Source: Alphaproteobacteria bacterium (GTDB lineage Bacteria; Pseudomonadota; Alphaproteobacteria; UBA9219). Taken from it: DNA of 64,000 bases. A program made the position numbers and the translations under genes. Numbering within the stretch: the first letter of the stretch is position 1; each line of letters begins with the position of its first letter. Location of the stretch: assembly GCA_013289265.1 (NCBI GenBank), contig JABDAH010000004.1:9153-73152 (forward strand), given 5' to 3'. This document shows, piece by piece, positions 8,880 to 35,300 of the stretch. Below the pieces are notes generated by a model. It was given only the letters and a program-made list of their open reading frames with translations, had not been told where the DNA came from and made no database searches.

Positions 8880-10166
8880 TTAAGCCGCCTTTGTTTTCTC
8901 GATAGCTCTCCAGCCGATATCACGGCGGCAGAAACCTTCCGGCCAGTCGATCTGGTCGACAGCTTGATAGGCGCGGCTTTGCGCTTCGGCGATAGTATGG
9001 CCCACGGCGGTGACGGCGAGAACGCGTCCACCGGTAGCGATGACATCACCTGCTTCGTTGGTGTCAGTCCCGGCGTGAAATACAACGGCGTTTGGCACAG
9101 TGGCCGCTTTATCCAATCCGCGAATGGCGGTGCCTTTTTTGTAGCTGCCGGGATAGCCTGTAGCAGCCATAATGACAGTCAGCGCTGCGTAATCGTGCCA
9201 ATGGATGTCGATACCGTCCAACATGCCTTTGCTGCAGGCATAGAGCAGTGAGAGTAAGTCTGACTTTAAGCGCATCAACATGCACTCCGTTTCCGGGTCG
9301 CCAAAACGAGCGTTAAATTCAATCAACCTTGGCCCCGTTTTTGTCATCATCAGACCAGCGAATAAAATGCCGCTGAAGGGGCGACCCATATCGCGCATGG
9401 CTTTGACAGTCGGATTGATAATCTCATTCATGATGCGGTCTGACATCGCGGCATCAACGATCGGTGCCGGAGAATACGCGCCCATGCCGCCCGTGTTGGG
9501 ACCTTTGTCACCGTCATAGACAGCTTTGTGGTCTTGCGCCGCTGTGAAGGGGATCGCCACTTCACCGTCGCAGAGGGCAAAGAAACTGACTTCCTCGCCT
9601 TCCATATATTCTTCGATGACAACGGATGATCCGGAATCGCCGAAGGCTTTATTGATCATCGCATCGTCGATAGCCGCCAGCGCTTCCTCAATCGTTTGCG
9701 CAACGGTAACGCCTTTGCCTGAGGCAAGGCCGTCAGCTTTAACGACAATCGGTGCGCCTTGGGCGCGTACATAATCCTTTGCGGCTGTGGCATCGGTAAA
9801 GCGTTGGTAACCGGCGGTCGGTACATTGGCTTTGGCAGCCAGATCTTTCATAAAGCCTTTGGAGCCTTCAATTTCAGCGGCGAGTTTGCCGGGGCCAAAG
9901 CAGGCTATGCCTTCGGCGCGTAATTCATCAGCAAGGCCTAGGGTCAAAGGTAGTTCCGGCCCGATGACGACAAAATCAATTGCATAGAGGTGGCAGACTG
10001 CGATGATATCGTGAATTTTGTCAGCCGCTATGGGCAGGCATTCAGCAACGGCCTTGATGCCGGCATTACCTGGTGCGCAATATAGCTTTTCGCAAAGCGG
10101 CGATTTGGCAATCGACCAGCACAGCGCATGTTCGCGGCCACCACCGCCAACGACGAGAACTTTCAT
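8880..10166 (-). CDS. purD: Phosphoribosylamine-glycine ligase
   Basis: Starts at ATG 10166 (MKVLVVGGGGREHALCW), the canonical PurD N-terminus. The 22-codon extension in the ORF track runs into the palindromic element. Confidence 0.95.
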   Translation of the reverse strand: MKVLVVGGGGREHALCWSIAKSPLCEKLYCAPGNAGIKAVAECLPIAADKIHDIIAVCHLYAIDFVVIGPELPLTLGLADELRAEGIACFGPGKLAAEIEGSKGFMKDLAAKANVPTAGYQRFTDATAAKDYVRAQGAPIVVKADGLASGKGVTVAQTIEEALAAIDDAMINKAFGDSGSSVVIEEYMEGEEVSFFALCDGEVAIPFTAAQDHKAVYDGDKGPNTGGMGAYSPAPIVDAAMSDRIMNEIINPTVKAMRDMGRPFSGILFAGLMMTKTGPRLIEFNARFGDPETECMLMRLKSDLLSLLYACSKGMLDGIDIHWHDYAALTVIMAATGYPGSYKKGTAIRGLDKAATVPNAVVFHAGTDTNEAGDVIATGGRVLAVTAVGHTIAEAQSRAYQAVDQIDWPEGFCRRDIGWRAIEKTKAA

Positions 10167-10185
10167 TTGGTTTTCCTCACCACAA

Positions 10186-10372
10186 TTAATAACGTCATCC
10201 CGGAACACTTTCTTTTCGACTTGCTTTAGCAAGGCGAAAGAAAGTTTATCCGGGACCCAGTCAGGCTATCCATACAAGCTTTTTATCTGATAGTATCACT
10301 GGGTTCCGGATAAATTCGCATTTTCCCGCTAGTGCGGAAAAAAGCGAATTTTCCGGAATGACGTTACAATTA
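10186..10372. repeat. Nested palindromic element: a 16-bp closing stem around three long hairpins
   Basis: The closing stem pairs TAACGTCATCCCGGAA (10191-10206) with TTCCGGAATGACGTTA (10352-10367), with 1 mismatch. Hairpin 1 is 10208-10246, about 17 bp. Hairpin 2 pairs 10247-10262 with 10299-10314, 16 bp including one G-U. Hairpin 3 is 10314-10351, about 15 bp with a CCGC-tagt-GCGG tip. Confidence 0.7.
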
Positions 10373-10382
10373 AAACCTGATT

Positions 10383-11765
10383 ATGGCTATGGCTGAAACG
10401 ACTACGCAATCCGCTTTATTTGACCAACCAAGGCCCGGCAGTAATTTGCCGGAATTCAGCGTGGGTGAAATCTCCAAACTGTTGAAAAAGACGGTGGAGG
10501 AGACGTTTGGTCAGGTGCGGGTGCGCGGTGAGATCAGTGGTCTGAAGGTCGCGCCCAGCGGCCATATTTATTTCGATTTAAAGGATCAGGAAGCTTTGCT
10601 GGCGTCGGTATGCTGGAAAGGGCAGGCGGGTAAGCTGGGCCTGAAGCTGGAAAATGGTATGGAAATTGTCTGTACCGGACGGCTAACCACCTATATTGCC
10701 CGGTCGAATTATCAGCTGGTCGTCGAACGCGCAGCGCTGGCGGGTGTCGGCGCTTTACTGAAAATGCTGGAAGACAGGCGGAAGCGGCTGGAGGCCGAAG
10801 GGCTATTCAACCCGGCGCGCAAACAGTTGCTCCCCTATTTGCCGGAAGTTATCGGTGTAGTTACATCACCAACCGGTGCCGTGATCCGCGATATTTTGCA
10901 CCGGCTTGATGATCGTTTTCCGCGCCATGTTCTGGTCTGGCCAGTGGCAGTGCAGGGCGAAGGAGCGGCGCAGCAGATTGCATCTGCCATTGAAGGCTTT
11001 AATGCGCTGCCGGAAGACGGCTCTACACCGCGGCCGGATGTTTTGATCGTCGCGCGTGGTGGCGGCTCGATGGAAGATTTGATGCCGTTTAACGAAGAAA
11101 TAGTGGTGCGCGCTGCTGCTGCCAGCCATATTCCGCTGATTTCCGCCGTGGGGCATGAAACCGATACGACATTGATCGATTACGCCGCCGATGTGCGGGC
11201 GCCTACACCAACGGCAGCGGCTGAAATGGCCGTACCAGTGCGGGCTGATATATGGGCGCAAGTGACAGATAACGGCAGGCGCATGGATGATTACATGCGG
11301 CGCATGGTGCAAACACACCGTGAGCATCTGGCGCTTATGGGCCGGGCGCTTGGCGATCCGCAACGGGCGATGGAACCGCTGATGCAGCGGCTGGATGATA
11401 AATCCATACGTCTGACCATGGGCTGGCAGAGTTATCAGGCGAGATGTGCCGCGCGTGTGGCGGAAGCTGCAGGAAAAATAAGGCACCCGCGCGATATCGT
11501 GCAATTAGCCCAGCAAAAATTGATGCATTATGAACATAAAATGGGTTCCGTATTGCGGGAGATGTATTTACGCAAGCAGCATAAGCTAGAAAATTTAGGT
11601 GCTGTACTGGGGCATCTGTCACCGAAAGCAGTGTTGGGCCGCGGTTATGCCCTGATACAGGATGCATCCGGCCATGTAATCACAAGCAGCATAGCGCCCA
11701 AAGATGGGGATAAAATTCAGATCGAATTTTTCGATGGTAAGCGCGGCGCAGTGGTTAGGGATTAA
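10383..11765 (+). CDS. xseA: Exodeoxyribonuclease VII large subunit
   Basis: 460 aa with an OB-fold N-terminus (VRVRGEISGLKVAPSGHIYFDLKD) and the GRGGGSMEDL motif. Confidence 0.95.
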   Translation: MAMAETTTQSALFDQPRPGSNLPEFSVGEISKLLKKTVEETFGQVRVRGEISGLKVAPSGHIYFDLKDQEALLASVCWKGQAGKLGLKLENGMEIVCTGRLTTYIARSNYQLVVERAALAGVGALLKMLEDRRKRLEAEGLFNPARKQLLPYLPEVIGVVTSPTGAVIRDILHRLDDRFPRHVLVWPVAVQGEGAAQQIASAIEGFNALPEDGSTPRPDVLIVARGGGSMEDLMPFNEEIVVRAAAASHIPLISAVGHETDTTLIDYAADVRAPTPTAAAEMAVPVRADIWAQVTDNGRRMDDYMRRMVQTHREHLALMGRALGDPQRAMEPLMQRLDDKSIRLTMGWQSYQARCAARVAEAAGKIRHPRDIVQLAQQKLMHYEHKMGSVLREMYLRKQHKLENLGAVLGHLSPKAVLGRGYALIQDASGHVITSSIAPKDGDKIQIEFFDGKRGAVVRD

Positions 11766-34272: not shown

Positions 34273-34317
34273 AGTGGTCAGAGAAGAAAGAGATTATTTC
34301 TTCTTTCTCTGACCACT
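34273..34317. repeat. Long imperfect palindrome (about 20 bp stem), 6 nt downstream of the prmA stop
   Basis: AGTGGTCAGAGAAGAAAGAGA / TTTCTTCTTTCTCTGACCACT. The first 13 bp pair perfectly, then there are bulges. There is no U-tract on the prmA strand, so it may be a REP-like element rather than an intrinsic terminator. Confidence 0.5.
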
Positions 34318-34322
34318 GACCC

Positions 34323-35300
34323 CTAAGCTTTCAGAACCAAAATCGACCATTCCCCAAGCCGTATGCATTTAACGAGATGGATTTTTTGCATCCGGTGCGC
34401 GGCTATAACCATATTGGCTTGATGGTTTAGAAGCCCTGCCAGAATAACCATGCCACCGGGACGCAGATGACGTTTTAAATCGTGCGCCATGTGACTCAGT
34501 GGTTTTGCGAAAATATTAGCCATGATCAAGTCATAGGGTGCGCCCTGATGCACAAGCCGCGAATTGTAGCCGCGATTAACGGATGTGCGGATATTTTTGC
34601 GAAGGCCGTTAGATGCAGCGTTGTTTTTCGCGATCACAACGGAATCCGGATCAAGGTCAACCGCTACATTGTGGCCGCCGTAAAGTTGTGCCGCTGCCAT
34701 CGCCAAAATGCCGGAGCCGCATCCCATATCAAGCATCCTGAAAGCATGCTTTCCTTCTGGCGTGACTCCCGCGCAGGCGGGAGTCCATTTGTGGGCTTGG
34801 TGTTTTAAAAATGGATGCCCGCCTACGCGGGCATGACGCTGAATTAATTTCTTTTTAAAAATCCAGTTTAGCATCAGGAGGCAGCCGCGCGTTGTCGGAT
34901 GTTCGCCTGTGCCGAAGGCATTCGTGGCATCGATCTGCAAAGCGTAGCGGCGGTTGGGAACTTTGCTGCGATGGAGAGCACCGTGAATAGTCCAGCGGGC
35001 GATAGGCAGCGGTGGAAAATCTTCTGCAACTTTTTTCAGCCAGTCGAGTTTCGGCATTTCTTTGATAGTGAGTTTCGGCGTCGCAATTTTATGAATCATT
35101 GCCACGATAGATAGTTGCGCCGTCAGGTTGGGAAGGTCCGGCAGCGAATCATAGAGCGCTTCAATCTGCGCTTCTGCCTTGCGGGGCGGTGCCAGTACCG
35201 TTACAGCCAGCGCATTTTCGCCCAAAGGTTCGGCCATGGCATCGGCCAGCGCAGAAGGTACCTTAAACGTCAGGGCCCAGATTTTGTGCTTAAAAGACAT
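34323..35300 (-). CDS. prmA: Ribosomal protein L11 methyltransferase, carrying an in-frame insertion
   Basis: 325 aa with GTGEHPTTRGCL and LDMGCGSGILAMAA (SAM motif). About 41 residues separate the two motifs, against about 12 in E. coli PrmA as I recall it. Confidence 0.9.
   Translation of the reverse strand: MSFKHKIWALTFKVPSALADAMAEPLGENALAVTVLAPPRKAEAQIEALYDSLPDLPNLTAQLSIVAMIHKIATPKLTIKEMPKLDWLKKVAEDFPPLPIARWTIHGALHRSKVPNRRYALQIDATNAFGTGEHPTTRGCLLMLNWIFKKKLIQRHARVGGHPFLKHQAHKWTPACAGVTPEGKHAFRMLDMGCGSGILAMAAAQLYGGHNVAVDLDPDSVVIAKNNAASNGLRKNIRTSVNRGYNSRLVHQGAPYDLIMANIFAKPLSHMAHDLKRHLRPGGMVILAGLLNHQANMVIAAHRMQKIHLVKCIRLGEWSILVLKA
34760..34839. repeat. ~80-nt double-hairpin palindromic element inside the prmA coding sequence
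   Basis: The sequence is GCGTGACTCCCGCgcagGCGGGAGTCCATTT-n18-AAATGGATGCCCGCctacGCGGGCATGACGC. Each arm is itself a perfect 8-9 bp hairpin, and the arms are inverted copies of each other. It encodes residues about 154-181 (QRHARVGGHPFLKHQAHKWTPACAGVTP). Confidence 0.7.

Follow-up and report, generated by a model that had tools for sequence, protein, structure and literature searches.

Identity of the palindrome between purD and xseA

The spacer between the divergent genes purD and xseA, in the 64,000-nucleotide stretch analysed here (hereafter, the window), is filled almost entirely by a palindrome of ~187 nt. The question raised by this locus is whether the structure regulates its neighbours, is the remnant of a transposable element, or belongs to a family of repeats with members elsewhere. 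We judged it likely that two long-stem repeats of the CGTC-tagged REP superfamily, the class of Neisseria dRS3/NTS and the Ssn-related motifs (SRM), make up positions 10193–10363 as a tail-to-tail (TT) heterodimer.

Gene boundaries and predicted fold

We placed the start of purD at the minus-strand ATG at 10166, which has a ribosome binding site (GAGGAAAA) at 10172–10179. The protein aligned from residue 1 in almost every relative whose purD was located beside xseA; thus, the TTG-started ORF that extends purD up to 10232 is non-coding, as the initial annotation had proposed. The ORF list put the start of xseA at 10383; alignment of 5′ ends with relatives (G011) favoured the ATG at 10389, which is the likely start. 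The spacer is 216–222 nt long, and only ~19 nt and 10–16 nt of it lie outside the palindrome as first delimited.

The geometry originally described, a 16-bp outer stem with one mismatch (TAACGTCATCCCGGAA paired with TTCCGGAATGACGTTA) closing three hairpins, was recovered by direct inspection, by a repeat finder (Table 1) and in the minimum free energy RNA folds of both strands. Fold energies were −87.2 kcal/mol for the plus strand (z = −11.9) and −95.3 kcal/mol for the minus strand (z = −12.5), and none of 200 shuffled RNA sequences folded as well. The element as single-stranded DNA (ssDNA) reached −54.2 kcal/mol (z = −11.5). One detail fared worse: the AATT that had been read as an extension of the stem belongs to an 8-nt direct repeat, ACAATTAA, and is not clearly stem.

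Two directional units with facing tails

The element consists of two directional units, each with an unpaired (A)CGTC head, an A-T stem start, an interrupted hairpin of 55–63 nt, an invariant C and a CAG tail (Table 1). Unit 1 by itself formed one hairpin from which an unpaired head and an unpaired tail protruded (ssDNA, −21.2 kcal/mol, z = −7.1), and unit 2 by itself reached −23.5 kcal/mol (z = −7.5); the spacer between the tails folded weakly on its own (−4.9 kcal/mol, z = −1.5). As one unit is on the plus strand and the other on the minus strand, and both heads point outward, the heads and the basal TCCGGA stems can also pair with each other, which gives rise to the apparent four-way junction. 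That is, the ‘closing stem’ is the two CGTC heads and the first stem bases of both units, mutually paired. The middle hairpin of the first description is composed of the spacer, the tails CCCAGT/ACTGGG and the 3′ base-stem arms of both units. Among the readings offered earlier, several nested REP-like hairpins came closest: the REP-like character stood, and the nesting gave way to two units with a spacer between their tails.

The sub-type of unit 2 differs from that of unit 1, and the window pair is therefore a heterodimer. Closely alike copies of the unit 2 sub-type occur at four other loci of this genome (C12, C16, C23, C33); the window unit has diverged further, and its stem changes are compensated. 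A spacer of the window type was also present in dimers of two relatives (G011 and G002), and the remaining dimers of this genome carry another type that is 15 nt longer.

Table 1. Positions of the features discussed, numbered along the window
Feature	Position	Strand	Details or evidence
purD (phosphoribosylamine-glycine ligase)	8880..10166	-	Pfam GARS_N/A/C
Left direct repeat ACAATTAA	10182..10189	+	8 nt; flanks dimer
Closing stem	10190-10205 x 10351-10366		16 bp, 1 mismatch
Inner hairpin I3	10198-10225 / 10228-10255		repeat finder
Inner hairpin I2	10245-10270 / 10289-10314		repeat finder
Inner hairpin I4	10312-10329 / 10334-10351		repeat finder
REP unit 1, long-stem CGTC/SRM-type	10193..10260	+	sequence, own fold, 34-unit alignment
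Unit 1 head	10193-10196	+	CGTC
Unit 1 base stem	10197-10204 x 10249-10256	+	ATCCCGGA x TCCGGGA(C)
Unit 1 inner box and apex hairpin		+	CTTTCTTTTCG / CGAAAGAAAG; ACTTGC-TTTA-GCAAG
Unit 1 invariant C	10257	+	
Unit 1 tail	10258-10260	+	CAG
Spacer between tails	10261..10298	.	ends GCTATC / GATAGT complementary
REP unit 2, long-stem CGTC/SRM-type	10299..10363	-	unit listing (C4 - 19514), own fold
Unit 2 head	10363 to 10360	-	CGTC
Unit 2 base stem and inner stem		-	ATTCCGGA; AAATTCGC-TTTTTTCCGC-ACTA-GCGGGAAAA-GCGAATTT
Unit 2 tail	10302 to 10299	-	C-CAG
Right direct repeat ACAATTAA	10366..10373	+	8 nt
xseA (exonuclease VII large subunit)	10389..11765 (likely start)	+	Pfam Exonuc_VII_L plus OB-fold
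Canonical CGTC-1 pair inside prmA	34760-34839		

Copies in this and related genomes

The genome that contains the window (G000) is a 63%-complete, Micavibrio-related assembly of 1.49 Mb. A search for further copies found at least 10 loci, comprising eight TT dimers and two deletion derivatives. All ten were intergenic, and the dimers were 82–95% identical to each other. The element is thus multi-copy and, as shown below, its structure covaries; it is not the single-copy sequence without homologues or covariation that the initial annotation had named as the outcome opposed to mobility. Within the same family, 11 of 24 genomes (11 of 20 genera) carried the element, and the 16 genomes of two sister families gave no matches. 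A scan of 185,579 species genomes located the long-stem branch almost only in uncultured Micavibrio-related alphaproteobacteria. The loci gathered comprised 66 distinct TT dimers as well as singletons, those in G004, G009 and G012 having the form CGTC-AT-stem-loop-stem-AT-CCAG. Whole dimers with the same spacer recurred across genera.

Short relatives of these units were present too. G000 holds about 25–35 short CGTC-1 REPs along with 36-nt intermediates, and one of these short REPs, CGTCATTCCGGCGAAGGCCGGAATCCAG, has a head, basal stem and tail in common with the long units. A canonical CGTC-1 pair lies inside prmA. The likeness that had been noted between the palindrome and this prmA element proved sound in one respect, the CGTC head found in both; the CCGC/GCGG hairpin tip does not provide the link. 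The long units also have a conserved inner box, TTTCTYTTCG/CGAAAGAAA. We considered whether the box is a separate repeat put into a short REP and rejected the idea, as in G000 it always lay inside CGTC-headed units (9/9).

Deletion or hybrid derivatives were seen at C13, C3 and C23 and in G002, where one TT dimer is a hybrid of a short and a long unit. At the site that corresponds to C33 of G000, G002 has a different (short plus long) dimer and G001 has an extra gene.

Maintained structure of the repeat

Covariation was assessed in an alignment of 34 units from 11 genomes. GTCAT and the C right after the palindrome were invariant in this alignment, and the tail was either C-CAG or C-CGA. Across 216 distinct units the base preceding GTCAT was C in 186 and T in 27; the search pattern for this larger set was anchored on GTCAT, which was therefore fixed there by design. 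Paired cells made up 97.5% of those observed in the 34 units versus 92.6% in shuffles, and five pairs had changed on both sides, with double changes at 8–65 (UA 18, CG 15), 11–62 (GC 23, AU 11) and 18–54 (CG 15, UA 15, GC 3). The covariation score was reached by none of 500 shuffles, and slid controls collapsed. At the base of the stem, pair 7–66 was UA in all 34 units and pair 6–67 was AU in 22 of the 34, being A.C in unit 1 of the window. In total, the long units have at least 19 conserved pairs in addition to the apex helix. Because the covariation spans unrelated loci, we attributed the structure to the repeat itself, as opposed to the purD-xseA locus.

Relation of the dimer to purD and xseA

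Comparison with the corresponding spacers of relatives, a check that the initial annotation had suggested, showed the element to be absent from those examined, including G001 and G002 of the same genus. In most relatives the spacer was 20–145 nt long and element-free, and in others it held an unrelated inserted gene. The same-genus spacers are too diverged from that of G000 for exact insertion boundaries. These results show that the dimer is repeated non-coding DNA, which was either inserted into the purD-xseA spacer or expanded within it.

A cis-regulator of the divergent pair, in the form of a structured 5′-leader RNA or a promoter-modulating DNA cruciform, would accord with several features of the locus: both promoters or 5′ UTRs must overlap the element since the spacer is nearly filled, either strand is predicted to fold with extreme stability, and a conserved GCTAnnnTTTCACC box before xseA in relatives is altered in G000. 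However, relatives run purD and xseA without the element, covariation extends across unrelated loci, and members of the same family occur, in either orientation, in the spacers of functionally unrelated genes that are arranged convergently, in tandem or divergently. The covariance search (Rfam 15, positions 9900–10700, E ≤ 1) yielded no family match, only chance-level hits to mir-580 and rliE (22 and 20 bits, where the gathering scores are 83 and 90), and a scan of 10050–10500 for sigma-70 promoters and intrinsic terminators returned nothing. We consider a dedicated regulatory RNA or cruciform quite improbable on these grounds. A positional side-effect of the dimer on expression is possible, although not as the reason for its presence. 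The right-hand head (ATGACG) was also considered as a −35 element of xseA, a reading that found no support.

Flanking repeats and termini

The absence of the element from orthologous spacers is equally what a MITE would predict, that is, a non-autonomous IS derivative in which AACGTCATTCCGGAA serves as the terminal inverted repeat (TIR) for a DDE transposase and the target is duplicated on insertion. The termini are indeed inverted repeats of 15–16 nt, the copies are numerous, intergenic and 150–190 nt in length, and the window copy is flanked by the exact 8-nt repeat ACAATTAA. Target duplications were nevertheless not enriched in the family: among the 66 distinct dimers we observed three flanking repeats of at least 6 nt compared to 2.0 expected from permuted flanks. 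ACAATTAA was the sole flanking repeat of 7 nt or more, for which the permuted control expects 0.5 (0.1 for at least 8 nt); it may be a target duplication at the window copy only, or chance. The TIR model does not predict half-elements, yet these occur as directional singletons that have a single head and end in a CCAG tail. The supposed TIR is made up of the head and base conserved in a REP class also found as 23-nt-stem-loop units. Only small GIY-YIG ORFs were bracketed by these termini, and no IS shared them. A MITE is thus very improbable here.

Ssn-like GIY-YIG genes beside the repeats

Two ORFs of G000, 97 and 95 aa long, encode proteins with GIY-YIG as their single domain (Pfam GIY-YIG E-values of 1.8e-15 and 2.2e-15, respectively). 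By inspection against the published residue numbers, the Tyr, Tyr, Glu spacing in both proteins equals that of Y6/Y17/E64 in N. meningitidis SsnA. The Ssn clade has been defined by cd10448, a BLAST E-value below 1e-10 to N. meningitidis SsnA, and the catalytic residues Y6, Y17 and E64 (PMC11893778). NCBIfam contained no specific model for the G000 proteins, and a PDB search by sequence returned only UPF0213 BH0048 (1zg2, E = 4e-4). We refer to them as Ssn-like on the basis of Pfam match, size, catalytic-residue spacing and flanking repeats.

One of the two genes is bracketed by short REPs, and the other (C27) has a long-unit TT dimer 9 nt past its stop codon. Long units also flank ssn homologues in G002, G007, G009, G011, G012, G014 and G017, several of them on both sides. 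An ssn gene was present in 10 of the 11 same-family genomes with repeats versus 5 of the 13 without. When the label ‘long’ was mapped on the Ssn tree, it required 4 changes compared to 9.2 in shuffles, and none of 500 shuffles was as low. Clade and stem length correspond loosely, since short REPs flank four of the Ssn-B genes.

The C27 gene adjoins the sub-type with a CCGATT tail, and the tail of the window copy is CCCAGT. The Ssn clade whose genes sit beside CCCAG-tailed units (G002 C243, G009 C90, G011 C44) is unrepresented in the 63% of G000 that is assembled. In G011 the gene of this clade contains a stop codon, though G011 is among the repeat-richest genomes. Between nuoC and nuoD of G000 lies a cassette of ~470 nt made up of an ssn gene and a long dimer; nuoC and nuoD overlap (ATGA) in same-genus and other relatives, and genes of the Ssn-B clade are found at various nuo-operon junctions in several genera.

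A strict REPIN, a REP doublet that owes its mobility to a RAYT (an IS200/IS605-type Y1 HUH transposase), seems scarcely credible: although an inverted doublet with a conserved spacer is the repeated unit, alike among the G000 dimers and across genera, and the family lacks target-site duplications as Y1 enzymes predict, PF01797 had no match in G000 or in the repeat-rich G011, G013, G002 and G004, Y1-bearing genomes among the 24 relatives were not repeat-enriched, the head is CGTC, not GTAG, and CGTC REPs have been reported to be unlinked to RAYT genes (PMC3733652).

Discussion

Our verdict is that the dimer is a long-stem variant of a known repeat-nuclease system and not a dedicated regulator. 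A mechanism for such a system can be sketched by analogy. Whenever the DNA is single-stranded, in replication, transformation or repair, each unit would fold into its own hairpin. A small GIY-YIG nuclease of the Ssn type may then bind the head, basal stem and tail, and nick the ssDNA on the 5′ side of the head, a few nucleotides away. Activity of this kind is established for SsnA of N. meningitidis and for three of its homologues (PMC11893778). Candidate nucleases are encoded in G000 and its relatives, by genes that long units directly flank.

It is conceivable, but in our estimation unlikely, that the long CGTC units and the GIY-YIG genes together form a self-propagating system whose spread is driven by an Ssn-type ssDNA nuclease and not by a transposase. 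The nuoC/nuoD cassette, the differing nuo junctions of Ssn-B genes and the same-spacer dimers shared across genera are compatible with Ssn-driven spread. Were it true, such spread would supply the ‘missing enzyme’ of CGTC REPs. As a corollary, what the enzymes read would be confined to head, basal stem and tail, the 45-nt apical insert and its box being either tolerated or additionally read, and the Ssn enzymes that tolerate or read the box would constitute a new specificity class.

CGTC-headed REPs were long an orphan class without a partner protein, and were tied to Ssn ssDNA nucleases in 2025. The published definitions (CGTC stems of 8–9 bp; an SRM pattern with a loop of 0–5 nt) miss the whole long-stem branch, which has conserved TT heterodimers and brackets particular Ssn clades. 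The long units offer natural substrates for asking which parts of a hairpin Ssn enzymes read and, with the Ssn-like genes, new enzyme-site pairs for ssDNA tools. The insertion polymorphisms at purD|xseA and nuoC|nuoD can be used to ask whether the repeats still move. For annotation, the message is that the structure in the window is a genomic repeat, not a riboswitch-like regulator of purine synthesis.

Comparison with known repeat systems

The long units resemble REPINs (Bertels & Rainey; Nunvar et al.; Ton-Hoang et al.) in that an inverted-REP doublet forming a long hairpin is the repeated unit, repeats flank a single-copy cognate gene, and target duplications are lacking. They differ from REPINs in their CGTC head (GTAG in REPINs) and in the candidate enzyme, a GIY-YIG nuclease as opposed to an HUH Y1 transposase. 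With the BIMEs of enterobacteria and the RIMEs of rhizobia they share modular intergenic palindromic units with spacers, together with deletion and hybrid derivatives, whereas the unit sequences are unrelated. BIMEs function in gyrase or IHF binding and in the protection of mRNA 3′ ends.

CGTC REP families and their TT and HH dimers have been described, with Micavibrio among the hosts (PMC3733652), and CGTC-1 includes Neisseria dRS3, Rickettsia RPE-6 and repeats of Micavibrio aeruginosavorus (Di Nocera, De Gregorio & Rocco 2013, PMC3733652). The families CGTC-1 to CGTC-4 are defined by a stem of 8–9 bp and a loop of 4–5 nt; in the superfamily as a whole, CGTC (or TGTC/CCTC) lies unpaired at one terminus, the first two stem positions are complementary A-T residues, and the repeat closes with a short CCA-like tail that is unpaired (PMC3733652). 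Our units agree with CGTC-1 REPs in the CGTC (or TGTC) head, the A-T at stem positions 1 and 2, the CCA-type tail, the alphaproteobacterial host, the formation of dimers, the lack of RAYT association and the presence of canonical copies in the same genome. In contrast to the 8-bp stem and 4-nt loop of CGTC-1, they have a hairpin of ~45 nt as apex; moreover, TT dimers were reported as rare and HH as predominant (PMC3733652), whereas TT is the main form of the long units. Units of 55–63 nt exceed the 8–9 bp definition, and they therefore fall outside CGTC-1 to CGTC-4, being a long-stem variant of the superfamily only.

The NTS/SRM repeats are sites of ssDNA binding and cleavage by SsnA (Chenal et al. 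2025, Nat Commun 16:2388, PMC11893778), for which the nucleotides immediately 5′ to the palindrome and the C that follows on its 3′ side are critical (PMC11893778). In the Ssn system this activity is strand-specific and extends to neither dsDNA nor RNA (PMC11893778). The SRM pattern, HGTCWYN(0-2)YYVSBRHN(0-5)WNVSBRGN(0-2)RNCYNB (PMC11893778), had no match at 10101–10450 of the window; in G000 as a whole it had 32 matches (3–13 in shuffles), of which ~27 were canonical short REPs. An SRM begins with an HGTC-WY head, continues into a palindrome that a C immediately follows, and ends in a YRG tail; the long units correspondingly read CGTC-AT ... C-CAG. As with NTS/SRM, there are many intergenic copies, heads point outward around small (95–97 aa) single-domain GIY-YIG genes, and the presence of repeats correlates with that of the gene. 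Unlike SRMs, whose hairpins are described as 20–50 nt, the long units have a hairpin of 55–63 nt (up to 95 nt), an interrupted stem of ~25 bp that is about three times longer, and a conserved inner box, and they usually occur as TT heterodimers with a conserved spacer. Because the long units lie outside both the SRM pattern and the CGTC stem length, their membership rests on the head, base and tail and on the association with the gene.

Structure of the purD–xseA element

The initial annotation had described a nested palindrome at 10186–10372, and its 16-bp outer stem around three hairpins was recovered as described. The stem pairs 10190–10205 with 10351–10366 (one mismatch). RNA folding of both strands gave the three-hairpin junction (−87.2 and −95.3 kcal/mol, z about −12), and the single-stranded DNA fold of the element reached −54.2 kcal/mol (z = −11.5). 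When the element was compared by BLAST with the assembly of its own genome, G000 (1.49 Mb, 61 contigs, 63% complete), four further full-length copies were found at 75–81% identity (contigs C12, C16, C33 and C60), together with the derivatives listed in the table. All copies in G000 were intergenic, lying between convergent (3), tandem (4) or divergent (3) gene pairs. Four copies of 183–186 nt were 82–95% identical to one another; the copy in the window, a 171-nt variant, differs in its spacer. We concluded that the structure is genuine and exceeds chance by far, yet belongs to a genomic repeat and is not a locus-specific device.

Matches in relatives were often limited to query positions 8–76 or 113–180, and these partial matches were singletons reading CGTC-AT-stem-loop-stem-AT-CCAG. 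GTCAT-anchored searching gave 17 genuine units for G000; relatives also contained many. The two units of the window element point their heads (CGTC ends) outward and their tails, CCCAGT and ACTGGG, at each other; the element is thus a tail-to-tail heterodimer. Folded singly, each unit gave a single long hairpin that left its head and tail free (−21.2 and −23.5 kcal/mol, z about −7). Mutual pairing is also open to the two heads and to the units’ palindromic TCCGGA bases, and this produces the outer ‘closing stem’; the four-way junction and two independent hairpins are thus alternative pairings of one sequence. The palindromic hairpins first reported are real, but their anatomy is that of two directional units, not of nesting.

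Features of the repeat family and its neighbours
Feature	Genome	Position or contig	Strand	Remark
purD	G000	start ATG 10166	−	flanks element
Unit 1	G000	10193–10260	+	GTCAT-anchored search
Spacer	G000	10261–10298		38 nt, between unit tails
Unit 2	G000	10363–10299	−	GTCAT-anchored search
xseA	G000	start 10383 in ORF list		flanks element; ATG 10389 fits relatives better
Predicted nick, unit 1	G000	around 10183–10191	+	from biochemistry of homologues
Predicted nick, unit 2	G000	around 10365–10373	−	from biochemistry of homologues
Repeat copy	G000	C23		internal insertion
Repeat copy	G000	C13		single-hairpin derivative with two heads
Repeat copy	G000	C3		two-hairpin deletion derivative
Repeat copies	G000	C27, C8		two diverged dimers
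Long-unit-flanked ssn homologues	G002	C243		both sides
Long-unit-flanked ssn homologues	G007			two genes
Long-unit-flanked ssn homologues	G009	C104, C90		C104 both sides
Long-unit-flanked ssn homologue	G011			both sides; stop interrupts gene
Long-unit-flanked ssn homologues	G012, G014			
Long-unit-flanked ssn homologues	G017			two genes

The fold has been maintained across genomes. We aligned 34 commonest-type units drawn from G000 and ten relatives (11 genomes). Three features showed little or no variation: GTCAT, the inner box TTTCTYTTCG ... CGAAAGAAA, and the C that follows the palindrome. Standard pairs filled 97.5% of pair cells; in slid controls pairing fell to 24–61%. Both sides had changed at five pairs (e.g., 8–65 UA/CG, 11–62 GC/AU, 18–54 CG/UA/GC), a covariation reached by 0 of 500 shuffles, and the apex helix varied freely in sequence while keeping its pairing. 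A purine/pyrimidine-rich palindrome after prmA (34273–34317), previously likened to the first hairpin, has neither the CGTC head nor the TTTCTYTTCG/CGAAAGAAA box and so is not of this family. In the dimer copy at C23:2917–3181 of G000, the 3′ base of unit 1 is interrupted at the TCCGG palindrome by a G+C-rich insertion of about 60–75 nt.

Distribution and insertion at purD–xseA

In the search of relatives, matches occurred in 11 of 24 same-family genomes (11 of 20 genera) and in none of 16 genomes from two sister families. The commonest-unit pattern, run over one genome per species (185,579 species), matched 83 stretches in about 16 assemblies; the chance expectation for the long-unit pattern is about 0.5 matches in 596 Gb. 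Nearly all of these assemblies are labelled Alphaproteobacteria, Rhodospirillales/Rhodospirillaceae, ‘Bdellovibrionales’ or Micavibrio. The sole exception, an Acidimicrobiaceae-labelled MAG contig (JABEUP010000024.1, locus L178), is probably mis-binned or a chance hit.

Where purD adjoins xseA in relatives, the spacer lacks the element: it is short, or an unrelated gene has been inserted into it. Spacer length is mostly 20–145 nt (63 and 98 nt in the same-genus G001 and G002), and G002 carries the repeat family elsewhere, though not between these genes. The dimer thus represents an insertion or expansion specific to this lineage. Its flanks are too diverged among relatives for exact borders to be placed. 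An 8-nt direct repeat, ACAATTAA, stands on both sides of the window copy; because flanking repeats across 66 dimers were at chance level, this repeat is not a family property. A sequence scan around the element detected no promoter-like or terminator-like site, and we agree with the earlier reading that the TTG-extended purD frame entering the element is not coding.

Relatives’ spacers (L042–L069) carry a conserved GCTAnnnTTTCACC box directly before the xseA ATG in many genera. This −10-like box lies so near the start that it points to an xseA mRNA with little or no leader. In G000 (10374–10391) the TTTCACC part has been lost, and only GATTATGGCT stands before the ATG. In G024 (L057; GTCATCCCCGTGTAAACGGGAATCCAG ... 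CTGGATTCCCGCTTTCGCGGGAATGAC) and G043 (L052) the purD–xseA spacer contains other CGTC-type palindromes, and an inserted gene of about 200 aa lies there in several genera.

At a convergent intergenic site, C33:8128–8318 in G000 and the orthologous L240 (C15:800–1100) in G002, G000 has a long+long dimer, G002 a hybrid in which a short CGTC-1 REP is combined with a long unit, and G001 an extra gene in place of the dimer. Either the site is a hot spot used more than once, or an old insertion has been remodelled there.

Association with small GIY-YIG (Ssn-like) genes

Two GIY-YIG ORFs were present in G000 (95 and 97 aa), both with the Tyr/Tyr/Glu spacing of SsnA (Y6/Y17/E64), a 94-aa single-domain GIY-YIG nuclease (Chenal et al. 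2025, PMC11893778). The gene on C16 has short REPs on both sides, heads outward, and that on C27 has a long-unit tail-to-tail dimer 9 nt past its stop. Besides the long-unit-flanked homologues in the table, other ssn homologues of relatives had short REPs alongside. An ssn homologue was present in 10 of 11 genomes with long repeats vs. 5 of 13 without. On a maximum-likelihood Ssn tree the ‘long’ label was clustered, requiring 4 changes vs. 9.2 when shuffled (0 of 500 shuffles as low). All members of one clade (support 97/90) are flanked by CCCAG-tailed long units; this clade is absent from the assembled 63% of G000. In a second clade (94/93), long units flank 8 members and short REPs flank 4. 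Long repeats and small GIY-YIG genes are thus associated both physically and phyletically.

The C27 gene (97 aa, Ssn-like) and its dimer form a cassette of about 470 nt (C27:17833–18290, L117) in the NADH dehydrogenase operon, between nuoC and nuoD, two genes that overlap (ATGA) in G001, G003, G011 and G013. The insertion borders are an imperfect repeat of the nuoC end and nuoD RBS (GGTGAAGCCGTGA ... GGTGAAATATGA). The same Ssn clade recurs within or beside the nuo operon at differing positions in several genera: just after nuoD (L247 on G019 C91; L250 on G017 C5) or 3–7 kb downstream on the same strand (G004 C4, G012 C4, G018 C2).

In its single-stranded form, the Neisseria NTS (CGTCATTCCCGCGMAVGCGGGAATCYRG) is a binding target of SsnA, as are related SRM repeats, and the enzyme cleaves a few nt upstream of them. 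For cleavage, the bases immediately 5′ of the palindrome are important; for binding, the C immediately 3′ of it is (PMC11893778). By analogy, each unit would fold when its DNA is single-stranded, and an Ssn enzyme would bind the unit and nick 5′ of the head. A RAYT-type Y1 transposase, the enzyme of GTAG REPs, was rejected as an explanation: none occurs in G000 or in the repeat-rich G011, G013, G002 and G004.

Comparison with known repeats

The CGTC-tagged REP superfamily is defined by its head, A-T stem start and CCA-like tail; it is found mainly in alphaproteobacteria, Micavibrio aeruginosavorus is among its listed hosts, Neisseria dRS3 and Rickettsia RPE-6 belong to it, and no transposase has been found for it (Di Nocera et al. 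2013, PMC3733652). The long units have the same head, stem start and tail. G000 also holds about 25–35 canonical short CGTC-1 REPs, including a pair within prmA (34760–34839). Its short subtype CGTCATTCCGGCGAAGGCCGGAATCCAG shares head, basal stem and tail with the long units, 36-nt intermediates occur there as well, and G002 has a tail-to-tail hybrid dimer that combines a short with a long unit. From these sequences, the long units look like CGTC-1 REPs in which a hairpin of about 45 nt has replaced the 4-nt loop; the inner box never occurred outside CGTC-headed units in G000. Because their stems depart from the 8–9 bp that defines CGTC-1 to CGTC-4, we name them a long-stem variant, not a member of those groups.

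The published SRM pattern had no match in the long units. They share the GTC-AT head of NTS/SRM repeats, and their C-CAG tail fits the SRM C-YRG; ssn genes, too, are typically bracketed by their own repeats (PMC11893778). Within the CGTC/SRM repeat class linked to Ssn nucleases, the family is a long-stem variant that forms dimers and had not been described before.
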